Assembly (NCBI RefSeq): GCF_003334315.1
Contig: NZ_QOWR01000081.1
Source: Escherichia coli
GTDB lineage: Bacteria; Pseudomonadota; Gammaproteobacteria; Enterobacterales; Enterobacteriaceae
Reading direction: 5' to 3' (one strand)
DNA: 13,511 nt
The translations under genes were made by a program, and so were the position numbers. Below, piece after piece: positions 914 through 13,158 of this stretch. Position 1 is the stretch's first letter. Every line of letters begins with the position of its first letter. The notes under the pieces were generated by a model. That model did no database searches. It worked only from the letters and a program-made list of their open reading frames with translations, and was not told where the DNA came from.

Positions 914-968
914 TGCGCGATATGTCCTCCTGACCCATCTCACGTTACAATCCGTGGTTATGTTAAAC

Positions 969-990
969 GCCCTTCTCCGTGTGAGAGGGC
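969..990 (+). promoter_or_regulatory. Hairpin in selA leader (8-bp stem with single bulged T/U, 5-nt loop CGTGT); candidate SECIS-like SelB-binding element or yibF terminator
   Basis: GCCC-T-TCTC / CGTGT / GAGAGGGC read directly from sequence, 21 nt upstream of the selA ATG; function inferred. Confidence 0.3.
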
Positions 991-1010
991 CTTGATCAGC
1001 CAGGTTTCCT

Positions 1011-2402
1011 ATGACAACCGAAACGCGTTCCCTCTATAGTCAACTTCCGGCTATTGATCGCTTATTGCGCGATAGCTCCTTCCTTTCTTTGCGTGATACT
1101 TATGGTCACACCCGCGTGGTGGAATTGTTGCGTCAGATGCTCGACGAAGCGCGAGAAGTGATTCGTGGCAGCCAGACGCTGCCTGCGTGGTGTGAAAACT
1201 GGGCGCAAGAAGTCGATGCCCGGTTGACGAAAGAAGCGCAGAGCGCGCTGCGTCCGGTGATCAACCTGACGGGAACCGTGCTGCATACCAACCTTGGGCG
1301 AGCTTTACAGGCGGAAGCCGCGGTGGAAGCCGTTGCGCAGGCTATGCGTTCGCCAGTGACCCTCGAGTACGATCTGGACGACGCTGGACGCGGACATCGC
1401 GATCGTGCGCTGGCGCAGTTGCTGTGCCGCATTACGGGGGCGGAAGATGCCTGTATCGTTAATAACAATGCGGCGGCGGTGTTATTGATGTTGGCGGCCA
1501 CTGCCAGCGGGAAAGAGGTGGTGGTTTCTCGCGGCGAACTGGTGGAGATTGGCGGCGCGTTTCGTATTCCCGATGTTATGCGTCAGGCAGGCTGCACCCT
1601 ACACGAAGTAGGGACCACCAACCGCACGCACGCGAATGATTATTGTCAGGCGGTGAATGAAAATACCGCACTGTTGATGAAAGTACATACCAGTAACTAC
1701 AGCATTCAGGGGTTCACCAAAGCGATAGATGAAGCGGAACTGGTGGCGCTCGGCAAAGAGCTGGATGTTCCCGTAGTGACTGATTTAGGCAGTGGCTCGC
1801 TGGTCGATCTTAGCCAGTACGGTTTGCCGAAAGAGCCAATGCCGCAGGAGTTGATTGCGGCGGGCGTCAGTCTGGTGAGTTTCTCCGGCGACAAGTTGTT
1901 AGGCGGGCCGCAGGCAGGAATTATTGTTGGTAAAAAAGAGATGATCGCCCGCCTGCAAAGCCACCCGCTGAAGCGTGCATTACGCGCGGATAAAATGACC
2001 CTCGCGGCGCTGGAAGCCACGTTGCGTCTTTATTTACACCCTGAAGCTCTGAGTGAAAAATTACCGACCCTGCGCCTGCTTACCCGCAGCGCAGAGGTCA
2101 TTCAAATCCAGGCACAACGTTTACAGGCTCCCCTTGCCGCACATTACGGCGCGGAGTTTGCGGTACAGGTTATGCCATGTCTTTCGCAGATTGGCAGTGG
2201 TTCGCTGCCGGTTGATCGCCTGCCGAGCGCGGCATTAACGTTTACACCCCATGATGGACGCGGTAGCCACCTTGAGTCATTAGCCGCCCGCTGGCGTGAA
2301 TTGCCAGTGCCGGTGATTGGTCGTATTTATGACGGACGATTGTGGCTGGATTTACGCTGCCTTGAAGATGAGCAACGGTTTTTGGAGATGTTGTTGAAAT
2401 GA
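1011..2402 (+). CDS. selA: L-seryl-tRNA(Sec) selenium transferase (selenocysteine synthase)
   Basis: 463-aa ORF, translation [22 protein letters not shown]... matches SelA as I recall it; stop overlaps selB start (ATGA). Confidence 0.93.
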
Positions 2403-4243
2403 TTATTGCGACTGCCGGACACGTTGACCACGGCAAAACAACCTTATTGCAGGCGATTACTGGCGTAAATGCTGACCGTCTGCCGGAAGAAAAAAAGCGC
2501 GGCATGACCATCGATCTCGGCTATGCCTACTGGCCGCAGCCGGATGGTCGCGTGCCTGGTTTTATCGACGTACCCGGTCATGAAAAGTTTCTTTCCAACA
2601 TGCTGGCGGGCGTTAGTGGTATCGATCACGCGCTGTTGGTGGTGGCGTGCGATGACGGCGTGATGGCACAGACCCGTGAGCATCTGGCGATTTTGCAGCT
2701 GACCGGTAACCCGATGCTGACAGTGGCGCTGACCAAAGCCGATCGCGTGGACGAAGCGCGTGTTAATGAGGTTGAACGCCAGGTAAAGGAGGTGCTGCGG
2801 GAATACGGTTTTGCTGAGGCAAAACTGTTTATCACCGCAGCAACCGAAGGTCGGGGAATTGATGCCCTGCGCGAGCATCTGCTTCAGTTGCCGGAACGCG
2901 AGCACGCCAGCCAACATAGTTTCCGCCTCGCTATTGACCGCGCATTTACCGTAAAAGGTGCCGGGCTGGTCGTCACCGGTACGGCGTTAAGCGGGGAAGT
3001 GAAGGTAGGCGATTCACTCTGGCTGACTGGTGTAAATAAACCGATGCGTGTACGTGCGCTGCATGCGCAAAACCAGCCAACAGAAACCGCCAATGCCGGG
3101 CAGCGTATCGCGCTTAACATCGCGGGTGATGCGGAAAAAGAGCAGATTAACCGTGGCGACTGGCTGCTTGCCGATGTGCCGCCAGAGCCGTTCACACGGG
3201 TGATTGTCGAGCTTCAAACCCATACACCGCTGACCCAGTGGCAGCCGCTGCATATTCACCACGCCGCCAGCCACGTTACGGGACGCGTTTCGCTGCTGGA
3301 AGATAACCTTGCCGAGCTGGTGTTCGACACGCCGCTGTGGCTGGCGGATAACGATCGCTTAGTGCTGCGCGATATCTCGGCCCGCAACACGCTGGCGGGG
3401 GCGCGTGTGGTGATGCTTAACCCGCCGCGTCGCGGTAAACGTAAGCCGGAATATCTGCAATGGCTGGCGTCTCTTGCACGGGCGCAGAGCGATGCCGATG
3501 CGTTATCTGTTCATCTGGAACGCGGCGCGGTTAACCTTGCGGATTTCGCCTGGGCGCGCCAGCTCAACGGCGAAGGGATGCGCGAATTGCTGCAACAGCC
3601 TGGCTATATTCAGGCTGGTTATAGCTTGTTGAATGCGCCGGTTGCCGCTCGCTGGCAACGGAAAATTCTCGACACATTAGCGACTTATCATGAGCAACAT
3701 CGCGATGAACCTGGGCCTGGGCGCGAACGTCTGCGACGTATGGCGTTGCCAATGGAAGATGAAGCGCTAGTACTGTTGCTGATTGAAAAGATGCGCGAAA
3801 GCGGCGACATCCTCAGTCATCACGGTTGGCTGCATCTGCCGGATCACAAAGCGGGCTTCAGCGAAGAGCAGCAGGCCATCTGGCAAAAAGCAGAGCCGCT
3901 GTTTGGTGACGAGCCGTGGTGGGTGCGTGATCTGGCAAAAGAGACGGGTACCGACGAGCAGGCAATGCGCCTGACGCTACGCCAGGCGGCGCAGCAAGGA
4001 ATAATTACCGCGATCGTCAAAGATCGTTATTACCGTAACGATCGGATTGTCGAATTTGCCAATATGATCCGCGATCTCGATCAGGAGTGTGGTTCAACCT
4101 GCGCGGCGGATTTCCGCGATCGCTTAGGCGTAGGCCGAAAGCTGGCAATTCAGATTCTGGAATATTTTGACCGCATTGGCTTTACGCGTCGTCGTGGAAA
4201 TGATCATTTATTGCGCGACGCATTATTATTTCCGGAAAAATAA
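2399..4243 (+). CDS. selB: Selenocysteine-specific translation elongation factor SelB
   Basis: 614-aa ORF with GTP-binding P-loop [11 protein letters not shown] at N-terminus, DxxG (DVPGHE) and NKxD-like (TKAD) motifs; C-terminal winged-helix extension; ends ...LLFPEK as in E. coli SelB. Confidence 0.93.
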
Positions 4244-4432: not shown

Positions 4433-5584
4433 ATGGCATCTTCAACTTTCTTTATTCCTTCTGTGAATGTCATCGGCGCTGATTCATTGACTGATGCAAT
4501 GAATATGATGGCAGATTATGGATTTACCCGTACCTTAATTGTCACTGACAGTATGTTAACGAAATTAGGTATGGCGGGCGATGTGCAAAAAGCACTGGAA
4601 GAACGCAATATTTTTAGCGTTATTTATGATGGCACCCAACCTAACCCCACCACGGAAAACGTCGCCGCAGGTTTGAAATTACTTAAAGAGAATAATTGCG
4701 ATAGCGTGATCTCCTTAGGCGGTGGTTCTCCACACGACTGCGCAAAAGGTATTGCGCTGGTGGCAGCCAATGGCGGCGATATTCGCGATTACGAAGGCGT
4801 TGACCGCTCTGCAAAACCGCAGCTGCCGATGATCGCCATCAATACCACGGCGGGTACGGCCTCTGAAATGACCCGTTTCTGCATCATCACTGACGAAGCG
4901 CGTCATATCAAAATGGCGATTGTTGATAAACATGTCACTCCGCTGCTTTCTGTCAATGACTCCTCTCTGATGATTGGTATGCCGAAGTCACTGACCGCCG
5001 CAACGGGTATGGATGCCTTAACGCACGCTATCGAAGCATATGTTTCTATTGCCGCCACGCCGATCACTGACGCTTGTGCACTGAAAGCCGTGACCATGAT
5101 TGCCGAAAACCTGCCGTTAGCCGTTGAAGATGGCAGTAATGCGAAAGCGCGTGAAGCAATGGCTTATGCCCAGTTCCTTGCCGGTATGGCGTTCAATAAT
5201 GCTTCTCTGGGTTATGTTCATGCGATGGCGCACCAGCTGGGCGGTTTCTACAACCTGCCACACGGTGTATGTAACGCCGTTCTGCTGCCGCATGTTCAGG
5301 TATTCAACAGCAAAGTCGCCGCTGCACGTCTGCGTGACTGTGCCGCTGCAATGGGCGTGAACGTGACAGGTAAAAACGACGCGGAAGGTGCTGAAGCCTG
5401 CATTAACGCCATCCGTGAACTGGCGAAGAAAGTGGATATCCCGGCAGGCCTACGCGACCTGAACGTGAAAGAAGAAGATTTCGCGGTTCTGGCGACTAAT
5501 GCCCTGAAAGATGCCTGTGGCTTTACTAACCCGATCCAGGCAACTCACGAAGAAATTGTGGCGATTTATCGCGCAGCGATGTAA
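4433..5584 (+). CDS. yiaY: Iron-containing (group III) alcohol dehydrogenase
   Basis: 383-aa ORF, AGGAG 7 nt upstream of ATG; translation has Fe-ADH signatures ([14 protein letters not shown]-binding glycine motif, histidine-rich metal site ...[16 protein letters not shown]...). Position between selB and aldB as in K-12. Confidence 0.9.
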
Positions 5585-5748: not shown

Positions 5749-7287
5749 ATGACCAATAATCCCCCTTCAGCACAGATTAAGCCCGGCGAGTATGGTTTCC
5801 CCCTCAAGTTAAAAGCCCGCTATGACAACTTTATTGGCGGCGAATGGGTAGCCCCTGCCGACGGCGAGTATTACCAGAATCTGACGCCGGTGACCGGGCA
5901 GCTGCTGTGCGAAGTGGCGTCTTCGGGCAAACGAGACATCGATCTGGCGCTGGATGCTGCGCACAAAGTGAAAGATAAATGGGCGCACACCTCGGTGCAG
6001 GATCGCGCGGCGATTCTGTTTAAGATTGCCGATCGAATGGAACAAAACCTTGAGCTGTTAGCGACGGCTGAAACCTGGGATAACGGCAAACCCATTCGCG
6101 AAACCAGTGCTGCCGACGTGCCGCTGGCGATTGACCATTTTCGCTATTTCGCCTCGTGTATTCGGGCGCAGGAAGGTGGGATCAGTGAAGTTGATAGCGA
6201 AACCGTGGCCTATCATTTCCATGAACCGTTAGGCGTGGTGGGGCAGATTATCCCGTGGAACTTCCCGCTGCTGATGGCGAGCTGGAAAATGGCTCCCGCG
6301 CTGGCGGCGGGCAACTGTGTGGTGCTGAAACCCGCACGTCTTACCCCGCTTTCTGTACTGCTGCTAATGGAAATTGTCGGTGATTTACTGCCGCCGGGCG
6401 TGGTGAACGTGGTCAATGGCGCAGGTGGGGTAATTGGCGAATATCTGGCGACCTCGAAACGCATCGCCAAAGTGGCGTTTACCGGCTCAACGGAAGTGGG
6501 CCAACAAATTATGCAATACGCAACGCAAAACATTATTCCGGTGACGCTGGAGTTGGGCGGTAAGTCGCCAAATATCTTCTTTGCTGATGTGATGGATGAA
6601 GAAGATGCCTTTTTCGATAAAGCGCTGGAAGGCTTTGCACTGTTTGCCTTTAACCAGGGCGAAGTTTGCACCTGTCCGAGTCGTGCTTTAGTGCAGGAAT
6701 CTATCTACGAACGCTTTATGGAACGCGCCATCCGCCGTGTCGAAAGCATTCGTAGCGGTAACCCGCTCGACAGCGTGACGCAAATGGGCGCGCAGGTTTC
6801 TCACGGGCAACTGGAAACCATCCTCAACTACATTGATATCGGTAAAAAAGAGGGCGCTGACGTGCTCACAGGCGGGCGGCGCAAGCTGCTGGAAGGTGAA
6901 CTGAAAGACGGCTACTACCTCGAACCGACGATTCTGTTTGGTCAGAACAATATGCGGGTGTTCCAGGAGGAGATTTTTGGCCCGGTGCTGGCGGTGACCA
7001 CCTTCAAAACGATGGAAGAAGCGCTGGAGCTGGCGAACGATACGCAATATGGCCTGGGCGCGGGCGTCTGGAGCCGCAACGGTAATCTGGCCTATAAGAT
7101 GGGGCGCGGCATACAGGCTGGGCGCGTGTGGACCAACTGTTATCACGCTTACCCGGCACATGCGGCGTTTGGTGGCTACAAACAATCAGGTATCGGTCGC
7201 GAAACCCACAAGATGATGCTGGAGCATTACCAGCAAACCAAGTGCCTGCTGGTGAGCTACTCGGATAAACCGTTGGGGCTGTTCTGA
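5749..7287 (+). CDS. aldB: Aldehyde dehydrogenase B (NAD(P)-dependent)
   Basis: 512-aa reading from ATG 5749 preceded by AAGGAGA (5736-5742); translation [17 protein letters not shown]... with ALDH catalytic signatures (ELGGKSP glutamate motif, catalytic Cys in GEVCTCPSR). The track ORF start at 5611 is an unsupported upstream extension that overlaps the yiaY terminator. Confidence 0.92.
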
Positions 7288-7318
7288 TATAAGAAGCTGG
7301 TCGCATTGGGTATTCATT

Positions 7319-7400
7319 GCCTGATGCGACGCTTACGCGTCTTATCATGCCTACGGGAACCTGACCGTAGGCCGGATAAGGCGTACACGCCGCATCCGGC
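7319..7400 (+). repeat. REP/BIME element (two REP palindromic units in opposite orientation) downstream of aldB
   Basis: GCCTGATGCGACGCTTACGCGTCTTATCATGCCTAC (7319-7354) and GTAGGCCGGATAAGGCGTACACGCCGCATCCGGC (7367-7400) match the enterobacterial REP consensus families as I recall them. Confidence 0.75.
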
Positions 7401-7505
7401 ATAAACAAAGCGCACGTTGTTACAATTTACGTTTTAAACCTACGTGCGCAATAACCCAGACTACGCCAACAGAAGTGCGTTTCTGGGGCGTGTTTTGTCA
7501 GGAGT

Positions 7506-8160: not shown

Positions 8161-9306
8161 ATGGATTTACTGATTATTTTGACCTATGTGGCTTTTGCAT
8201 GGGCAATGTTTAAGATCTTCAAAATTCCCGTAAATAAATGGACCATTCCCACAGCGGCCCTGGGTGGAATATTTATTGTCAGCGGTCTAATTCTGTTAAT
8301 GAACTATAACCATCCGTATACCTTTAAAGCGCAAAAAGCGGTTATTTCTATTCCTGTTGTCCCACAGGTGACTGGTGTGGTGATTGAAGTGACGGATAAG
8401 AAAAATACGCTGATTAAAAAAGGTGAGGTGCTATTTCGACTGGACCCGACGCGTTATCAGGCGCGGGTGGATCGGCTGATGGCGGATATCGTTACCGCAG
8501 AACATAAACAGCGGGCGTTGGGCGCAGAGTTAGATGAGATGGCGGCGAATACTCAGCAGGCAAAGGCCACGCGGGATAAATTCGCTAAAGAGTATCAGCG
8601 TTACGCACGTGGCAGCCAGGCGAAAGTAAACCCGTTTTCAGAACGCGATATCGATGTGGCGCGGCAAAATTATCTGGCGCAGGAAGCCTCCGTGAAGTCA
8701 TCGGCGGCGGAACAAAAACAGATCCAGAGCCAGCTGGATAGCCTGGTGTTGGGTGAACATTCTCAAATCGCCAGCCTGAAAGCACAGCTCGCGGAAGCAA
8801 AATATAACCTTGAGCAGACGATAGTGCGTGCGCCGAGCGATGGTTATGTGACCCAGGTACTGATTCGTCCGGGTACCTATGCCGCGTCGCTGCCGCTACG
8901 TCCGGTGATGGTGTTTATACCCGATCAGAAACGACAAATCGTGGCGCAGTTCCGTCAGAACTCCTTGCTGCGACTGGCTCCTGGCGACGATGCGGAAGTG
9001 GTGTTTAATGCTCTGCCAGGTAAGGTATTCAGCGGTAAGCTGGCAGCCATTAGTCCAGCCGTTCCCGGCGGAGCTTATCAGTCGACCGGCACCTTACAGA
9101 CGTTAAACACAGCGCCGGGTTCAGATGGCGTTATCGCGACCATTGAACTGGATGAGCACACTGATTTGAGCGCTTTACCAGACGGTATTTACGCCCAGGT
9201 GGCGGTTTACTCTGATCATTTCAGCCATGTCTCGGTGATGCGCAAAGTGCTATTACGCATGACCAGCTGGGTGCATTACCCACACCTGCGGCAACCGTGG
9301 CGATAG
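8161..9306 (+). CDS. yiaV: HlyD-family membrane fusion protein YiaV; last about 9 codons are junction-derived, not native
   Basis: 381-aa ORF starting 5 nt after the yiaW stop; N-terminal TM helix, biotinyl/lipoyl-like beta-barrel and long coiled-coil segments typical of membrane fusion proteins; from about 9280 the same nucleotides encode the WcaK N-terminal motif in another frame. Confidence 0.85.
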
Positions 9307-9361
9307 CGCCATTCTGCGCGGGCTTTTAGATGCCATCAACACGCTCTCGCCTGAGGCTGAA

Positions 9362-10537
9362 GTGGATGTGATGAGCCGTTATCCGGTGAGTTCTTCCTGG
9401 TTGCTCAATCGCCCGGTGATGGGCGATCCGCTCTATTTGCAGATGAAAGCGCATAACAATGCGCCGGGCATGGTCGGGCGAGTGAAGAAAGTATTGCGTC
9501 GTCGCTATCAGCATCAGGTGCTGCTGTCACGCGTCACGGACAGCGGCAAGCTGCGCAATATCGCCATTGCTCAGGGCTTTACCGATTTTGTGCGTCTGTT
9601 GTCCGATTATGACGCGATTATCCAGGTGGGCGGATCGTTCTTCGTCGACCTGTATGGTGTGACGCAGTTTGAGCACGCGCTGTGCACCTTTATGGCGAAA
9701 AAACCGATTTATATGGTCGGCCATAGTGTCGGGCCGTTCCAGGCACCGGCGTTTAACCATATGGCAAACTATGTCTTTGGTCACTGCGACGCGCTGTTCC
9801 TGCGCGAGTCGGTCAGCCTTGATTTGATGAAACGCAGCGACATTGACACCTCGAAAGTGGAGAAGGGTGTCGATACCGCCTGGTTGGTCGATCACCACGA
9901 TGACAGTTTTGACGCGAGCTACGCCGTCCAGCACTGGCTGAATGTGGCGCAGCAGCAGAAAACCGTGGCGATTACCCTGCGTGAACTGGCGCCGTTTGAT
10001 AAACGCCTGGGCACCACGCAGGAAGCCTACGAAAAAGCGTTTGCGGGCGTGGTAAATCGGATCATCGCCAGCGGCTGGCAGGTGATGGCGCTCTCTACCT
10101 GTACGGGCATCGACAGCTATAACAAAGACGATCGCATGGTGGCGCTTAACCTGCGTAAACATATTCAGGACCCATCGCGCTACCACGTGGTGATGGATGA
10201 GCTTAACGATCTCGAAATGGGCAAACTGCTGGGCGCCTGTGACCTGACGGTCGGTACGCGTCTGCATTCAGCAATTATCTCCATGAACTTCGGAACACCG
10301 GCGATTGCGATTAACTACGAACACAAATCAGCGGGCATTATGCAGCAACTGGGTATGCCGGAAATGGCAGTCGATATTCGCCATCTACTGAATGGCGACC
10401 TGGAAGCGATGGCGGCAGACACCTTGGGTCAACTCTCAACGCTTGTGCCGCGCCTCAATGACGCGGTAGCGCGTGAGCGCGCGGCGGGGCTGGCGATGGT
10501 GGAATCGGTATTAACGCGCATCGGGGAGGGGAAATGA
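9362..10537 (+). CDS. wcaK: Colanic acid biosynthesis pyruvyl transferase WcaK, 5'-truncated (homology begins at 9281 with no start codon; first in-frame starts are GTG 9362 and ATG 9371)
   Basis: Frame-2 translation from 9281 reads [20 protein letters not shown]..., the conserved N-terminal motif of polysaccharide pyruvyl transferases (PF04230-type); the frame is closed by TGA at 9260-9262; stop overlaps the wcaL start (ATGA). Confidence 0.8.
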   Translation: MDVMSRYPVSSSWLLNRPVMGDPLYLQMKAHNNAPGMVGRVKKVLRRRYQHQVLLSRVTDSGKLRNIAIAQGFTDFVRLLSDYDAIIQVGGSFFVDLYGVTQFEHALCTFMAKKPIYMVGHSVGPFQAPAFNHMANYVFGHCDALFLRESVSLDLMKRSDIDTSKVEKGVDTAWLVDHHDDSFDASYAVQHWLNVAQQQKTVAITLRELAPFDKRLGTTQEAYEKAFAGVVNRIIASGWQVMALSTCTGIDSYNKDDRMVALNLRKHIQDPSRYHVVMDELNDLEMGKLLGACDLTVGTRLHSAIISMNFGTPAIAINYEHKSAGIMQQLGMPEMAVDIRHLLNGDLEAMAADTLGQLSTLVPRLNDAVARERAAGLAMVESVLTRIGEGK

Positions 10538-11760
10538 AGGTTGGTTTCTTCTTGCTGAAATTCCCGCTGTCGTCTGAAACCTTTGTGCTCAACCAGATTG
10601 TGGCCTTTATCGAAATGGGCCACGAGGTCGAAATTATCGCCCTGCAAAAGGGCGATATGACCAACACCCACGCGGCGTTCACGCAATATGACCTGGCAGC
10701 GAAAACACGCTGGTTACAGGATGAACCAGTGAGTACGGGCGCAAAGTTTCGTCATCGCGCAGTCAGCACGTTGCGCGGGTTACATCGCCCGGCAACGTGG
10801 CAGGCGCTCAATATGAAGCGTTACGGCCATGAAGCGCGCAACCTGATCCTCTCGGCCATTTGCGGCAATAACGCCCAGCCATTTAGCGCCGACGTATTTA
10901 TTGCTCACTTCGGCCCGGCGGGGGTAACTGCGGCGAAACTGCGCGAACTGGGCGTGATCCGCGGCAAAATCGCGACCGTCTTTCACGGCATTGATATCTC
11001 CAGCCGCGATGTGCTGAGCCACTACACGCCGGAGTATCAACAGCTTTTCCGTCGTGGCGATCTGATGCTGCCGATCAGTAATTTGTGGGCGAAACGATTG
11101 CAGGGAATGGGCTGCCCGGCGGCGAAAATTGCCGTTTCGCGAATGGGCGTCAACATGGACCGTTTTGCCCTGCGCCCCACCAAAGCGCCGGGTGAGACGC
11201 TGCAAATAATCTCAGTGGCCCGCCTGACGGAGAAAAAAGGTCTGCATGTAGCGATTGAAGCCTGCCGTCAGTTGAAAGAGCGCGGTGTGGCGTTTCACTA
11301 TCGCATTCTCGGCATCGGCCCGTGGGAACGCCGCCTGCGCACATTGATCGAACAGTATCAACTGGAAGGGTACGTGGAGATGCCGGGCTTTAAGCCCAGC
11401 CATGAGGTAAAAGCGATGCTCGATGAGGCGGATGTCTTTCTGCTGCCGTCGATTACCGGCGCAGATGGCGATATGGAAGGCATTCCTGTGGCACTGATGG
11501 AAGCGATGGCAGTGGGCATTCCGGTGCTTTCGACCGAGCATAGCGGTATTCCGGAACTGATAGACGCCAACGCCTCCGGCTGGCTGGTGGCGGAGAACGA
11601 CGCTCCGGCGCTGGCGGGCAAACTCAGCGAACTGCGCCATCTTGATGAGCCGACGCTGCGCCCGGTGCTACAACGCGCCCGCCAAAAAGTTGAAACCGAG
11701 TTCAATCAGCAGGTGATTAACCGCCAGCTCGCGAGCCTGCTGCAAACCCTTTGCTATTGA
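10534..11760 (+). CDS. wcaL: Colanic acid biosynthesis glycosyltransferase WcaL (GT4 family)
   Basis: 408-aa ORF; N-terminus MKVGFFLLKFPLSSETFVLNQ... and C-terminal GT-B motif region (EGIPVALMEAMAVGIPVLSTEHSGIPELI) with the E-X7-E signature typical of GT4 enzymes. Confidence 0.88.
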   Translation: MKVGFFLLKFPLSSETFVLNQIVAFIEMGHEVEIIALQKGDMTNTHAAFTQYDLAAKTRWLQDEPVSTGAKFRHRAVSTLRGLHRPATWQALNMKRYGHEARNLILSAICGNNAQPFSADVFIAHFGPAGVTAAKLRELGVIRGKIATVFHGIDISSRDVLSHYTPEYQQLFRRGDLMLPISNLWAKRLQGMGCPAAKIAVSRMGVNMDRFALRPTKAPGETLQIISVARLTEKKGLHVAIEACRQLKERGVAFHYRILGIGPWERRLRTLIEQYQLEGYVEMPGFKPSHEVKAMLDEADVFLLPSITGADGDMEGIPVALMEAMAVGIPVLSTEHSGIPELIDANASGWLVAENDAPALAGKLSELRHLDEPTLRPVLQRARQKVETEFNQQVINRQLASLLQTLCY

Positions 11761-11766
11761 GGTTGC

Positions 11767-13158
11767 ATGGATAAAAAATTTTCCCGACGTCGCTTCCTGT
11801 CGGCAGGCGCTACGCTTGCCGCCATCCCACTGCTACACAGCCCCGCTGTACGCGCGCTGGGGCGTAATGATGCCGTTGATATCCGCAACTATCTGGTCGG
11901 TAATGACTGGATCCGTGCATTTCGTCAGGCGTTTGACGATGCCGATATTATCGACGTCCCCAAAGGCGTGATTTGCGACAATATTAATACCGGCATCATC
12001 ATGCCACCGGGTAAAACGCTGCAGGTAAACGGCAGCCTGAAAGGCAATGGTCGTGGGCGTTTTGCGTTGCAGGATGGGTGTAAAGTGGTGGGGGAGGGGA
12101 GTCTCAATAATATTACTCTCGACGTGCGCGGATCTGACTGCACCATCGAAGGTCTGGCGATGAGCGGCTTTGGCCCGGTGGCGCAAATCTACATCGGCGG
12201 CAAACAAAAAAGGACGATGCGCAATCTCACCATCACGCGGATTAATATCAGCCAGGCTAACTACGGTATTTTACGCCAGGGTTTCCATAATCAACTCGAC
12301 GGCGTAAAAATCACCCACAGTAAATTTAGCTACCTGCAGGGTGATGCCATTGAATGGAACGTCGCGATTAACGACAAGAATATCCTCATTTCTGACCATG
12401 TGATTGACCACATTGATTGCACCAATGGCAAGACCAACTGGGGCATCGGTATTGGGCTTGCGGGCAGCACCTACGATAACGACTACCCGGAGCACCAGGC
12501 GGTGAAAAACTTTGTCGTCGCCAATATCACCGGCAGCCACTGCCGACAGTTGGTTCACGTCGAAAACGGTAAACACTTTATTATCCGTAATATTAAGGCA
12601 CGAAATATCACCCCGGAATACAGTAAGAAAGCCGGAATTGATAACGCTACGGTAGCAATATATGGATGTGATAATTTCGTTATCGATGGTGTGGATATGG
12701 TTAATAGCGCGGGCATGCTAATTGGCTATGGTGTTATCAAAGGGAAATATCTGTCGATACCGCAGAATTTCAGGATAAATAATGTGCGGATGGATAATCG
12801 ACAATTAACGCTAAAGCTGCGGGGAATACAGATTTCATCGGGCAATGCACCTTCGTTTGTTGCGCTTACCAACCTCGATCTGAACCATGCGTCGCTGGAG
12901 ATCCACAACAAGCCGCAACACATATTTATGCGTAATATCAAGGTGATACAGCCTGCGGCGCGCGGGCCCGCACTACAGCTCCACTTCGACTTACGCAAGG
13001 ATGTTCGCGGGAAGTTTATGGCCAAACAGGAGACGCTGCTCTCGATGTCAAATATTCATGCGGTCAATGAAAACGGCCAGCGGTCTGTGGATATTGACCG
13101 TATTGATCAGCACGTTGTCAATGTCGATGCGCTGAATTTTACCCTGCCTAAACGCTGA
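11767..13158 (+). CDS. wcaM: Colanic acid biosynthesis protein WcaM (Tat-signal, predicted right-handed beta-helix)
   Basis: 463-aa ORF, GAGG 9 nt upstream of ATG; twin-arginine signal [18 protein letters not shown]...A-VRA-LG; repeated N-I-T / V-x-N motifs consistent with a parallel beta-helix; last gene after wcaL as in the colanic acid cluster. Confidence 0.85.

Follow-up and report, generated by a model that had tools for sequence, protein, structure and literature searches.

A SECIS-like hairpin in the leader of the Escherichia coli selAB operon, its relation to the published SelB operator and its distribution in Enterobacteriaceae

The stretch of DNA analysed here (the window) comprises 13,511 nt of an Escherichia coli contig (NZ_QOWR01000081.1) and contains the yibF-selA-selB locus. 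Its selA gene encodes selenocysteine synthase and selB the selenocysteine (Sec)-specific elongation factor; our subject is a short hairpin in the leader of the selAB mRNA that resembles the apical part of a selenocysteine insertion sequence (SECIS) and is a candidate binding site for SelB. The 601-nt stretch 700-1300 matches all 5426 complete E. coli genomes compared, in which it is annotated as yibF and selA. The K-12 counterparts of the three genes (Table 1) are on the minus strand, where the position in NC_000913.3 equals 3,762,260 minus the window position and the selA start falls at NC_000913.3 3761249. The selA stop and the selB start overlap by 4 nt in an ATGA (2399-2402), an arrangement that suggests translational coupling of the two genes. 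The 74-nt leader 940-1013 is identical in 5229 of the 5426 genomes, K-12 included, and no RNA feature annotation covers it.

As RNA, the hairpin consists of the 5' arm GCCC-UU-CUC, the loop CGUGU and the 3' arm GAGAGGGC, forming eight Watson-Crick pairs with one unpaired U in the 5' arm. Direct reading and RNAfold both bear out the first-pass annotation of this DNA, which had described an 8-bp helix with a single 5'-arm bulged U four base pairs below a GU-containing loop. Base by base, the 5' arm runs G969, C970, C971, C972, U973, U974, C975, U976, C977, the loop C978, G979, U980, G981, U982, and the 3' arm G983, A984, G985, A986, G987, G988, G989, C990. The bulge is either U973 or U974, which are equivalent, each pairing with A986 at a probability of about 0.5. 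Four base pairs separate the bulge from the 5-nt loop, with G979-U980 at loop positions 2 and 3. The end of the hairpin was placed correctly at 21 nt before the selA start codon (from C990 to A1011 of the ATG, with 20 nt intervening). The AGG core of the selA Shine-Dalgarno sequence begins 11 nt past the apical helix, and the CCAGGC around it is kept in most of the orthologous leaders described below.

RNA folding, which had been proposed as a check, returned the hairpin as the minimum free energy (MFE) structure of the 54-nt span 960-1013, and its pair probability is 0.9-0.99 in four of the five transcript contexts used. The MFE of 969-990 is -10.3 kcal/mol. A 35-nt extended form, in which the lower stem GUUAA/UUGAU and an internal loop are added below the apical helix, is the MFE structure of both 959-1000 and 962-997, and brings the end of the structure to 5 nt from the Shine-Dalgarno core. 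The pairs of this lower stem are weak, with probabilities of just 0.1-0.6, and the stem is not kept outside Escherichia.

The promoter of selAB is situated between the yibF stop codon and the hairpin. Its -10 hexamer TACAAT is conserved, TACAAT-like boxes being found at -60 to -73 from the ATG in all hairpin-carrying orthologous leaders, and the -35 region, which reads TGTCCT at 923-928, is poor. Start sites given in U00096.2 coordinates were converted to those of NC_000913.3 with an offset that we take to be 1977 nt, which leaves an error of about 1 nt in the converted position. The differential RNA sequencing (dRNA-seq) data of Romero et al. 2014 (PMC4681348, Table S2) contain a reverse-strand transcription start site (TSS), RVS_(II)-3759324 in U00096.2, flagged as overlapping a RegulonDB TSS. 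After conversion it is located 8-9 nt past the -10 box, upstream of the hairpin and not downstream of position 990, and defines a 5' untranslated region (5'UTR) of about 51-52 nt. Because the -10 box and the TSS both lie between the yibF stop and the hairpin, the hairpin is within the selAB 5'UTR, at about +10 to +31 of the mRNA and -42 to -21 relative to the AUG. The text searched of the Cappable-seq TSS supplement (PMC4782308) held no entry for the selA locus.

The same evidence bears on whether the hairpin could be a weak intrinsic terminator of yibF, an alternative raised in the first-pass annotation and one that a GC-rich 8-bp hairpin 56 nt past the yibF stop codon might suggest. However, the sequence that follows the hairpin, CUUGAUCAG, has no U-tract, a terminator scan was silent at 969-990, and the conserved -10 box and mapped TSS separate the hairpin from yibF. 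In species without the hairpin, moreover, the promoter is merely nearer selA. We regard this alternative as extremely improbable and, as there is no U-tract, do not place the hairpin among intrinsic (Rho-independent) terminators. The scan did flag another structure, a 5-bp hairpin (UCACG...CGUGG) followed by UUAUGUUAAA at 940-957, which overlaps the selAB -10 box. This second hairpin could be a weak yibF terminator; its pairing is not kept outside Escherichia.

Table 1. Features of the yibF-selA-selB locus, in window coordinates.
Feature	Position	Strand	Basis or remark
yibF	305-913 (stop codon 911-913)		ORF (open reading frame); K-12 b3592
-10 hexamer TACAAT of the selAB promoter	946-951	+	Between yibF stop and hairpin; conserved
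Transcription start of selAB mRNA	959-960	+	TSS of Romero et al. 2014, converted; error about 1 nt
Extended hairpin: lower stem GUUAA (962-966)/UUGAU (992-996), internal loop, apical helix	962-996	+	MFE structure
SECIS-like apical hairpin: lower helix 969-972/987-990, upper helix (974)975-977/983-986, loop 978-982	969-990	+
Shine-Dalgarno core AGG of selA	1002-1004	+	6 nt before AUG; read from the sequence
selA, selenocysteine synthase, the regulated gene	1011-2402	+	ORF; annotated selA in 5426/5426 E. coli genomes; K-12 b3591
selB, Sec-specific elongation factor, proposed repressor	2399-4243	+	ORF; K-12 b3590

Within a SECIS, the determinants recognized by SelB are U17, G23 and U24. The true SECIS elements of E. 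coli were located in K-12 by their in-frame TGA, at codon 140 of fdhF and codon 196 of both fdnG and fdoG. The apical hairpin reads GG-U-UGCA-GGUC-UGCA-CC in fdhF and GG-U-AGCA-AGUCU-UGCU-CC in fdnG, that of fdoG being identical, and the corresponding part of the selA leader reads CCC-U-UCUC-CGUGU-GAGA-GGG. A register of bulged U, 5 nt and GU is common to all four, so that the comparison with the fdhF and fdnG apical stem-loops, suggested on first reading, gives an identical arrangement. A motif with a bulged U between a lower stem of 3 bp or more and an upper stem of 4 bp, capped by the loop N-G-U-N(N), recovers each of the three true SECIS elements exactly once within its gene. On the plus strand of the window it has a single match, 970-989, with a 3-bp lower stem, and 969-990 is the only hairpin of SECIS geometry in the selAB 5'UTR of about 51 nt. 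In contrast to the stability of the hairpin, its geometry exceeds chance: the motif occurs 8 times in 675 kb of background versus 39 of 79 orthologous leaders, a background rate that is indicative only, as the motif was defined post hoc, after the sequences had been seen. Two further matches were retrieved on the minus strand of the window, 12308-12327 and 4729-4747; both are within ORFs on the opposite strand, have weak stems rich in A-U and G-U pairs, and are most likely due to chance.

The consensus for bacterial SECIS (bSECIS) elements was taken from a 2026 review (PMC13188914). It has an apical loop of 3-9 nt on an upper stem of 4-16 bp, for which the selA hairpin has a 5-nt loop and 4 bp above the bulge (8 in total). 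It also places a G within the first two nucleotides of the loop, mostly with a G or U after it, and has an MFE of -7.5 kcal/mol or lower; the loop here is C-G-U-G-U, with G979 and U980 in question, and the hairpin is well below that energy. The consensus further has an in-frame Sec-UGA 16-37 nt upstream of the apical loop, inside a selenoprotein ORF. No UGA occurs in 941-962; the closest, at 931-933, precedes the TSS and is 45 nt ahead of the loop. Because it is located in a 5'UTR and no Sec-UGA is found 16-37 nt upstream, the selA hairpin is SECIS-like and not a SECIS. With the fdhF, fdnG and fdoG elements it shares the 5' bulged U, the upper stem of 4 bp, or 5 bp with the loop closed, and the G-U at loop positions 2 and 3. 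Unlike these elements, it is outside any ORF and lacks the UGA upstream of the loop; its stem is CU/GA-rich and far more stable (-10.3 kcal/mol versus -4.2 to -4.5 for the minimal SECIS helices), and its reported role is repression of initiation, whereas that of a SECIS is recoding.

A SECIS-like element near the Shine-Dalgarno sequence in the E. coli selAB 5'UTR is described in a preprint (10.64898/2026.03.03.709296) citing Thanbichler & Bock 2002 (EMBO J 21:6925; PMID 12486013, PMC139081). According to the same preprint, SelB with GTP and Sec-tRNA binds this element and represses selAB, in agreement with the autoregulation that the first-pass annotation had mentioned. PMC8124441 likewise mentions a 'SelB autoregulation system of E. 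coli'. SelB binding and repression by SelB-GTP-Sec-tRNA(Sec) at the selAB leader are thus reported in the literature. The hairpin at 969-990 is found where that operator is expected, in the 5'UTR between the TSS and the Shine-Dalgarno sequence, and has the 5' bulged U, the helix of about 4 bp and the G-U in the loop. The published element and this hairpin share organism, operon, region and SECIS features, and they have no known difference beyond the distance to the Shine-Dalgarno sequence. We therefore consider it very probable that the hairpin constitutes the apical portion of the SECIS-like translational operator described in the literature, for which it had been put forward as a candidate; the stretch expected within the published element is GCCCUUCUCCGUGUGAGAGGGC. 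The identification is taken as near-certain because this is the sole SECIS-type hairpin in the 51-nt leader. As such it is an element known since 2002 and not a new feature, and its confirmation adds little. A full-text literature search with the hairpin sequence found no paper.

The hairpin would act by copying the features of a real SECIS that SelB recognizes, namely a loop GU set at a fixed distance from a bulged U. As described in the literature, it would be bound by SelB carrying GTP and selenocysteyl-tRNA(Sec), and the bulky complex, held 11 nt upstream of the Shine-Dalgarno sequence, may hinder docking of the 30S subunit by steric occlusion and thereby lower selA translation. Repression could then reach selB through the ATGA overlap. 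A circuit of this kind would tie synthesis of the Sec machinery to charged tRNA(Sec), and hence to selenium supply. The element shows how a recoding factor can reuse its normal RNA target as a feedback sensor for selenium or charged-tRNA status, a point already in the literature. It resembles in this respect the operator of thrS, which mimics tRNA(Thr), and those of ribosomal proteins: an RNA-binding translation factor binds a mimic of its ligand in its own leader, at a site beside the ribosome-binding site, and initiation is repressed. The analogy with thrS is drawn in the preprint (10.64898/2026.03.03.709296). Unlike in those systems, the active repressor reported for selAB is a quaternary complex with charged tRNA(Sec), and what is signalled is the status of charged tRNA or selenium rather than a mere surplus of free protein.

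A genome scan with SelA retrieved 80 Enterobacteriaceae loci (75-100% protein identity), 79 of which included the leader. Of these 79 leaders, 70 have a hairpin that ends 16-28 nt ahead of the ATG and pairs a pyrimidine (CU) 5' arm with a purine (GA) 3' arm. The best hairpin reaches -12 kcal/mol or better in 65 leaders, compared with 13% of background windows. SECIS geometry was found in 40 leaders (39 with a 3-bp lower stem) and in two sequence forms, whose upper stems are UCUC/GAGA and CUCC/GGAG. The first, CCC-U-UCUC-CGUGY-GAGA-GGG, is that of Escherichia. Five aligned Escherichia leaders differ within the hairpin at two positions only: three have C in place of U982, and one strain has A in place of G988, while the bulge, the upper stem and the loop bases C-G-U-G are invariant. 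The second form, CCC-U-CUCC-CGUCG-GGAG-GGG (Klebsiella-type hairpin CUCCCUCUCCCGUCGGGAGGGGGG), is found in Klebsiella, Raoultella, Enterobacter, Lelliottia, Leclercia, most Kluyvera, Trabulsiella, Yokenella and some Phytobacter. In the Klebsiella/Enterobacter form the loop can close to give U-CUCCC-GUC-GGGAG, a 5-bp stem with a GUC triloop as in fdnG and fdoG, and this bulged conformer is less stable by 1-2 kcal/mol than an uninterrupted helix containing a U-G pair; the bulged form is obligatory in Escherichia only. In this Klebsiella/Enterobacter group, a set of 33 unique leaders was chosen for a close variant of the core, a selection that is partly circular; 27 of them, from more than ten genera, share one and the same 19-nt core, loop CGUCG included. 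Identity in the same selected leaders is 67-68% over the flanks and 77% over the first 20 selA codons.

The CU/GA hairpin was not found in the Atlantibacter, Shimwellia, Buttiauxella, Silvania and Franconibacter leaders of the 79-leader set. Where these hairpin-less leaders have a recognizable -10 box, as in all but Franconibacter, the box is at -37 to -43 and the leader is shorter by roughly the length of the hairpin. Five leaders from Atlantibacter, Shimwellia and Buttiauxella encode another strong hairpin, ACAGGGGG...CCCCCUGU (about -15 kcal/mol), some 36-60 nt ahead of selA; it immediately precedes the -10 box (TACACT or TAAACT) and overlaps it in part. It could be a yibF terminator or an element of the promoter region. 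Six leaders from other loci have a C-rich stretch after the -10 box (CCCCUYCACGUCG) that can pair with the GA arm, forming a longer alternative hairpin whose 9-nt loop includes the usual CU arm. Stretches of the CCCCCUC type occur after the -10 box in many other leaders and could likewise compete for the GA arm.

Several results weigh against reading 969-990 as the SelB operator, or against parts of the evidence for it. The preprint (10.64898/2026.03.03.709296) puts the element 3 nt from the Shine-Dalgarno sequence, whereas we measured 5 nt with the extended stem included and 11 nt from the end of the apical helix. The published boundaries differ from these or take in further pairing, the latter being probable for the published drawing. 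In the transcript context 959-1040 the probability of the hairpin falls to about 0.5. Its stability is not above chance, with z-scores of -1.09 (54-nt span), -0.03 and 0.04, and a hairpin of -10 kcal/mol or lower is found in 32% of random 54-nt windows drawn from the related loci. Thermodynamic significance was accordingly dropped as evidence, with z-scores near background and about a third of the random windows equally stable. No Rfam family matches in 900-1020 at E-values up to 10. Strict covariation is weak, with one compensatory pair of eight in 16 distinct ungapped hairpins of the Klebsiella/Citrobacter type. Finally, the leaders of Citrobacter, Salmonella and Intestinirhabdus have a perfect stem of 7-9 bp (CCCUCUCC/GGAGAGGG) without a bulge, under variable loops (ACGGU, GCGGU, AGCCA, CCGGC, ACAAC, GUCGU and GCACAU); the Salmonella-type hairpin sequence is CCCUCUCCAGCCAGGAGAGGG. 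Since the stem is kept in Citrobacter and Salmonella without the bulge or a constant GU loop, something other than SelB binding may account for the conservation of the hairpin.

Conservation and covariation across enterobacterial selA leaders had been named as a check, and the two parts gave different answers: the stem is widely conserved, but covariation in the strict sense hardly supports it. In the 16 Klebsiella/Citrobacter-type hairpins, 98.4% of cells are paired; four pairs are invariant, three vary on one side and one is compensatory, and 39-92 of 500 shuffles match the covariation of the set. A MAFFT alignment, inconsistent with the structure, shifts the Escherichia hairpins by two columns relative to the other types, out of structural register. 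A covariance model built from the same 16 hairpins and run on 368 kb gave significant matches confined to selA leaders, with a few others at E-values above 6 elsewhere, and it misses both the Escherichia form and the true SECIS hairpins. The alignment produced with this model mixes strands, the hairpin being near-palindromic, and was not used for pair counts. The structural argument rests on pairing that is kept across differing arm sequences, on loop conservation and on SECIS-like geometry, not on formal covariation statistics.

These observations lend some weight to a different explanation, in which the hairpin is a generic 5'UTR element serving mRNA 5'-end stability or ribosome access, and SelB binding is secondary, lineage-specific or minor. 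A homologous CU-arm/GA-arm hairpin in most leaders, kept almost wholly by sequence invariance, would fit such a role, as would the bulge-free stems with variable loops of Citrobacter, Salmonella and Intestinirhabdus. With the lower stem included, the E. coli structure moreover begins 3-4 nt from the mapped 5' end. A purely structural hairpin needs no fixed loop sequence, and the loop therefore counts against this explanation: in leaders with SECIS geometry, loop and stem are conserved to the same degree (CGUCG in 27 of the 33 leaders of the partly circular selection). The geometry is also in register with real SECIS hairpins, and SelB-dependent repression has been reported (preprint 10.64898/2026.03.03.709296). 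We judge a generic structural role to be unlikely and retain the SelB operator as the preferred interpretation.

The mapped TSS draws attention to another feature of the leader. An AUG at 960-962, within about 1 nt of the TSS, opens a frame of 11 codons that crosses the hairpin and ends at a UGA (993-995), with the predicted peptide MLNALLRVRGP. It could be argued that this short leaderless upstream ORF (uORF) modulates selA and that the RNA structure is incidental to it, and an ATG is indeed found 6-9 nt past the -10 box in 35 of the 79 leaders. However, 39 leaders have no such ATG, and the frame, length and stop vary among those that do, the stop being 15 nt upstream of selA, overlapping the selA ATG or replaced by an in-frame fusion to selA. 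The peptides are not conserved, and the trinucleotide may merely reflect a C-A-U preference at the start site. A conserved uORF at 960-995 was rejected on the differing frames and stops, and we attach hardly any probability to the structure being incidental to one.

Under the preferred interpretation as a SelB operator, the uneven occurrence of the bulge and loop among genera allows a tentative proposal, to which we give somewhat less than even credence. SECIS mimicry in the selAB leader may be lineage-specific, with an ancestral CU/GA hairpin that carries the SelB determinants in Escherichia and in Klebsiella, Enterobacter, Kluyvera and Raoultella. The determinants would have been lost or never gained in Citrobacter and Salmonella, and the whole module would be missing from the five hairpin-less genera. 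Reading of the sequences shows that very few changes separate the forms. Relative to the Citrobacter hairpin, that of Escherichia has one additional U in its 5' arm and lacks the top G; in that of Klebsiella a single A of the 3' arm is replaced by G, so that a U-A pair becomes U-G or a bulge. If the proposal is true, SelB autoregulation is not a general enterobacterial trait, and changes as small as one U insertion or one A-to-G in the 3' arm toggle it. We did not find this pattern of SelB determinants described in the searchable literature, and it offers a modest, testable lead. What the comparison adds is a map in which SelB-type geometry is present in about half of the Enterobacteriaceae selA leaders and a plain hairpin takes its place in Citrobacter and Salmonella. 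The natural leader variants could be used to separate what SelB needs for repression from what it needs for recoding.

Two observations concern the remainder of the window. In the whole-window Rfam scan, at E-values up to 10, the only matches were to naRNA4, near 7.3 kb. Three overlapping sub-threshold matches were retrieved at 7277-7450 on both strands, scoring 33-40 bits against a gathering score of 59.5, and they look like REP/BIME-type palindromic repeats downstream of aldB. Further along (context 8161-13158), a yiaV-like adaptor ORF (8161-9306) runs directly into wcaK without its first 35 codons, followed by wcaL and wcaM, with the join at 9279-9280. None of the 5426 complete E. coli genomes spans 8900-9800, and in the genomes listed the query beyond about 9280 matches wcaK, with a second, separate location also given. 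The window therefore holds either a chimeric join of the yiaV region to the colanic-acid cluster or an unusual rearrangement between the two.

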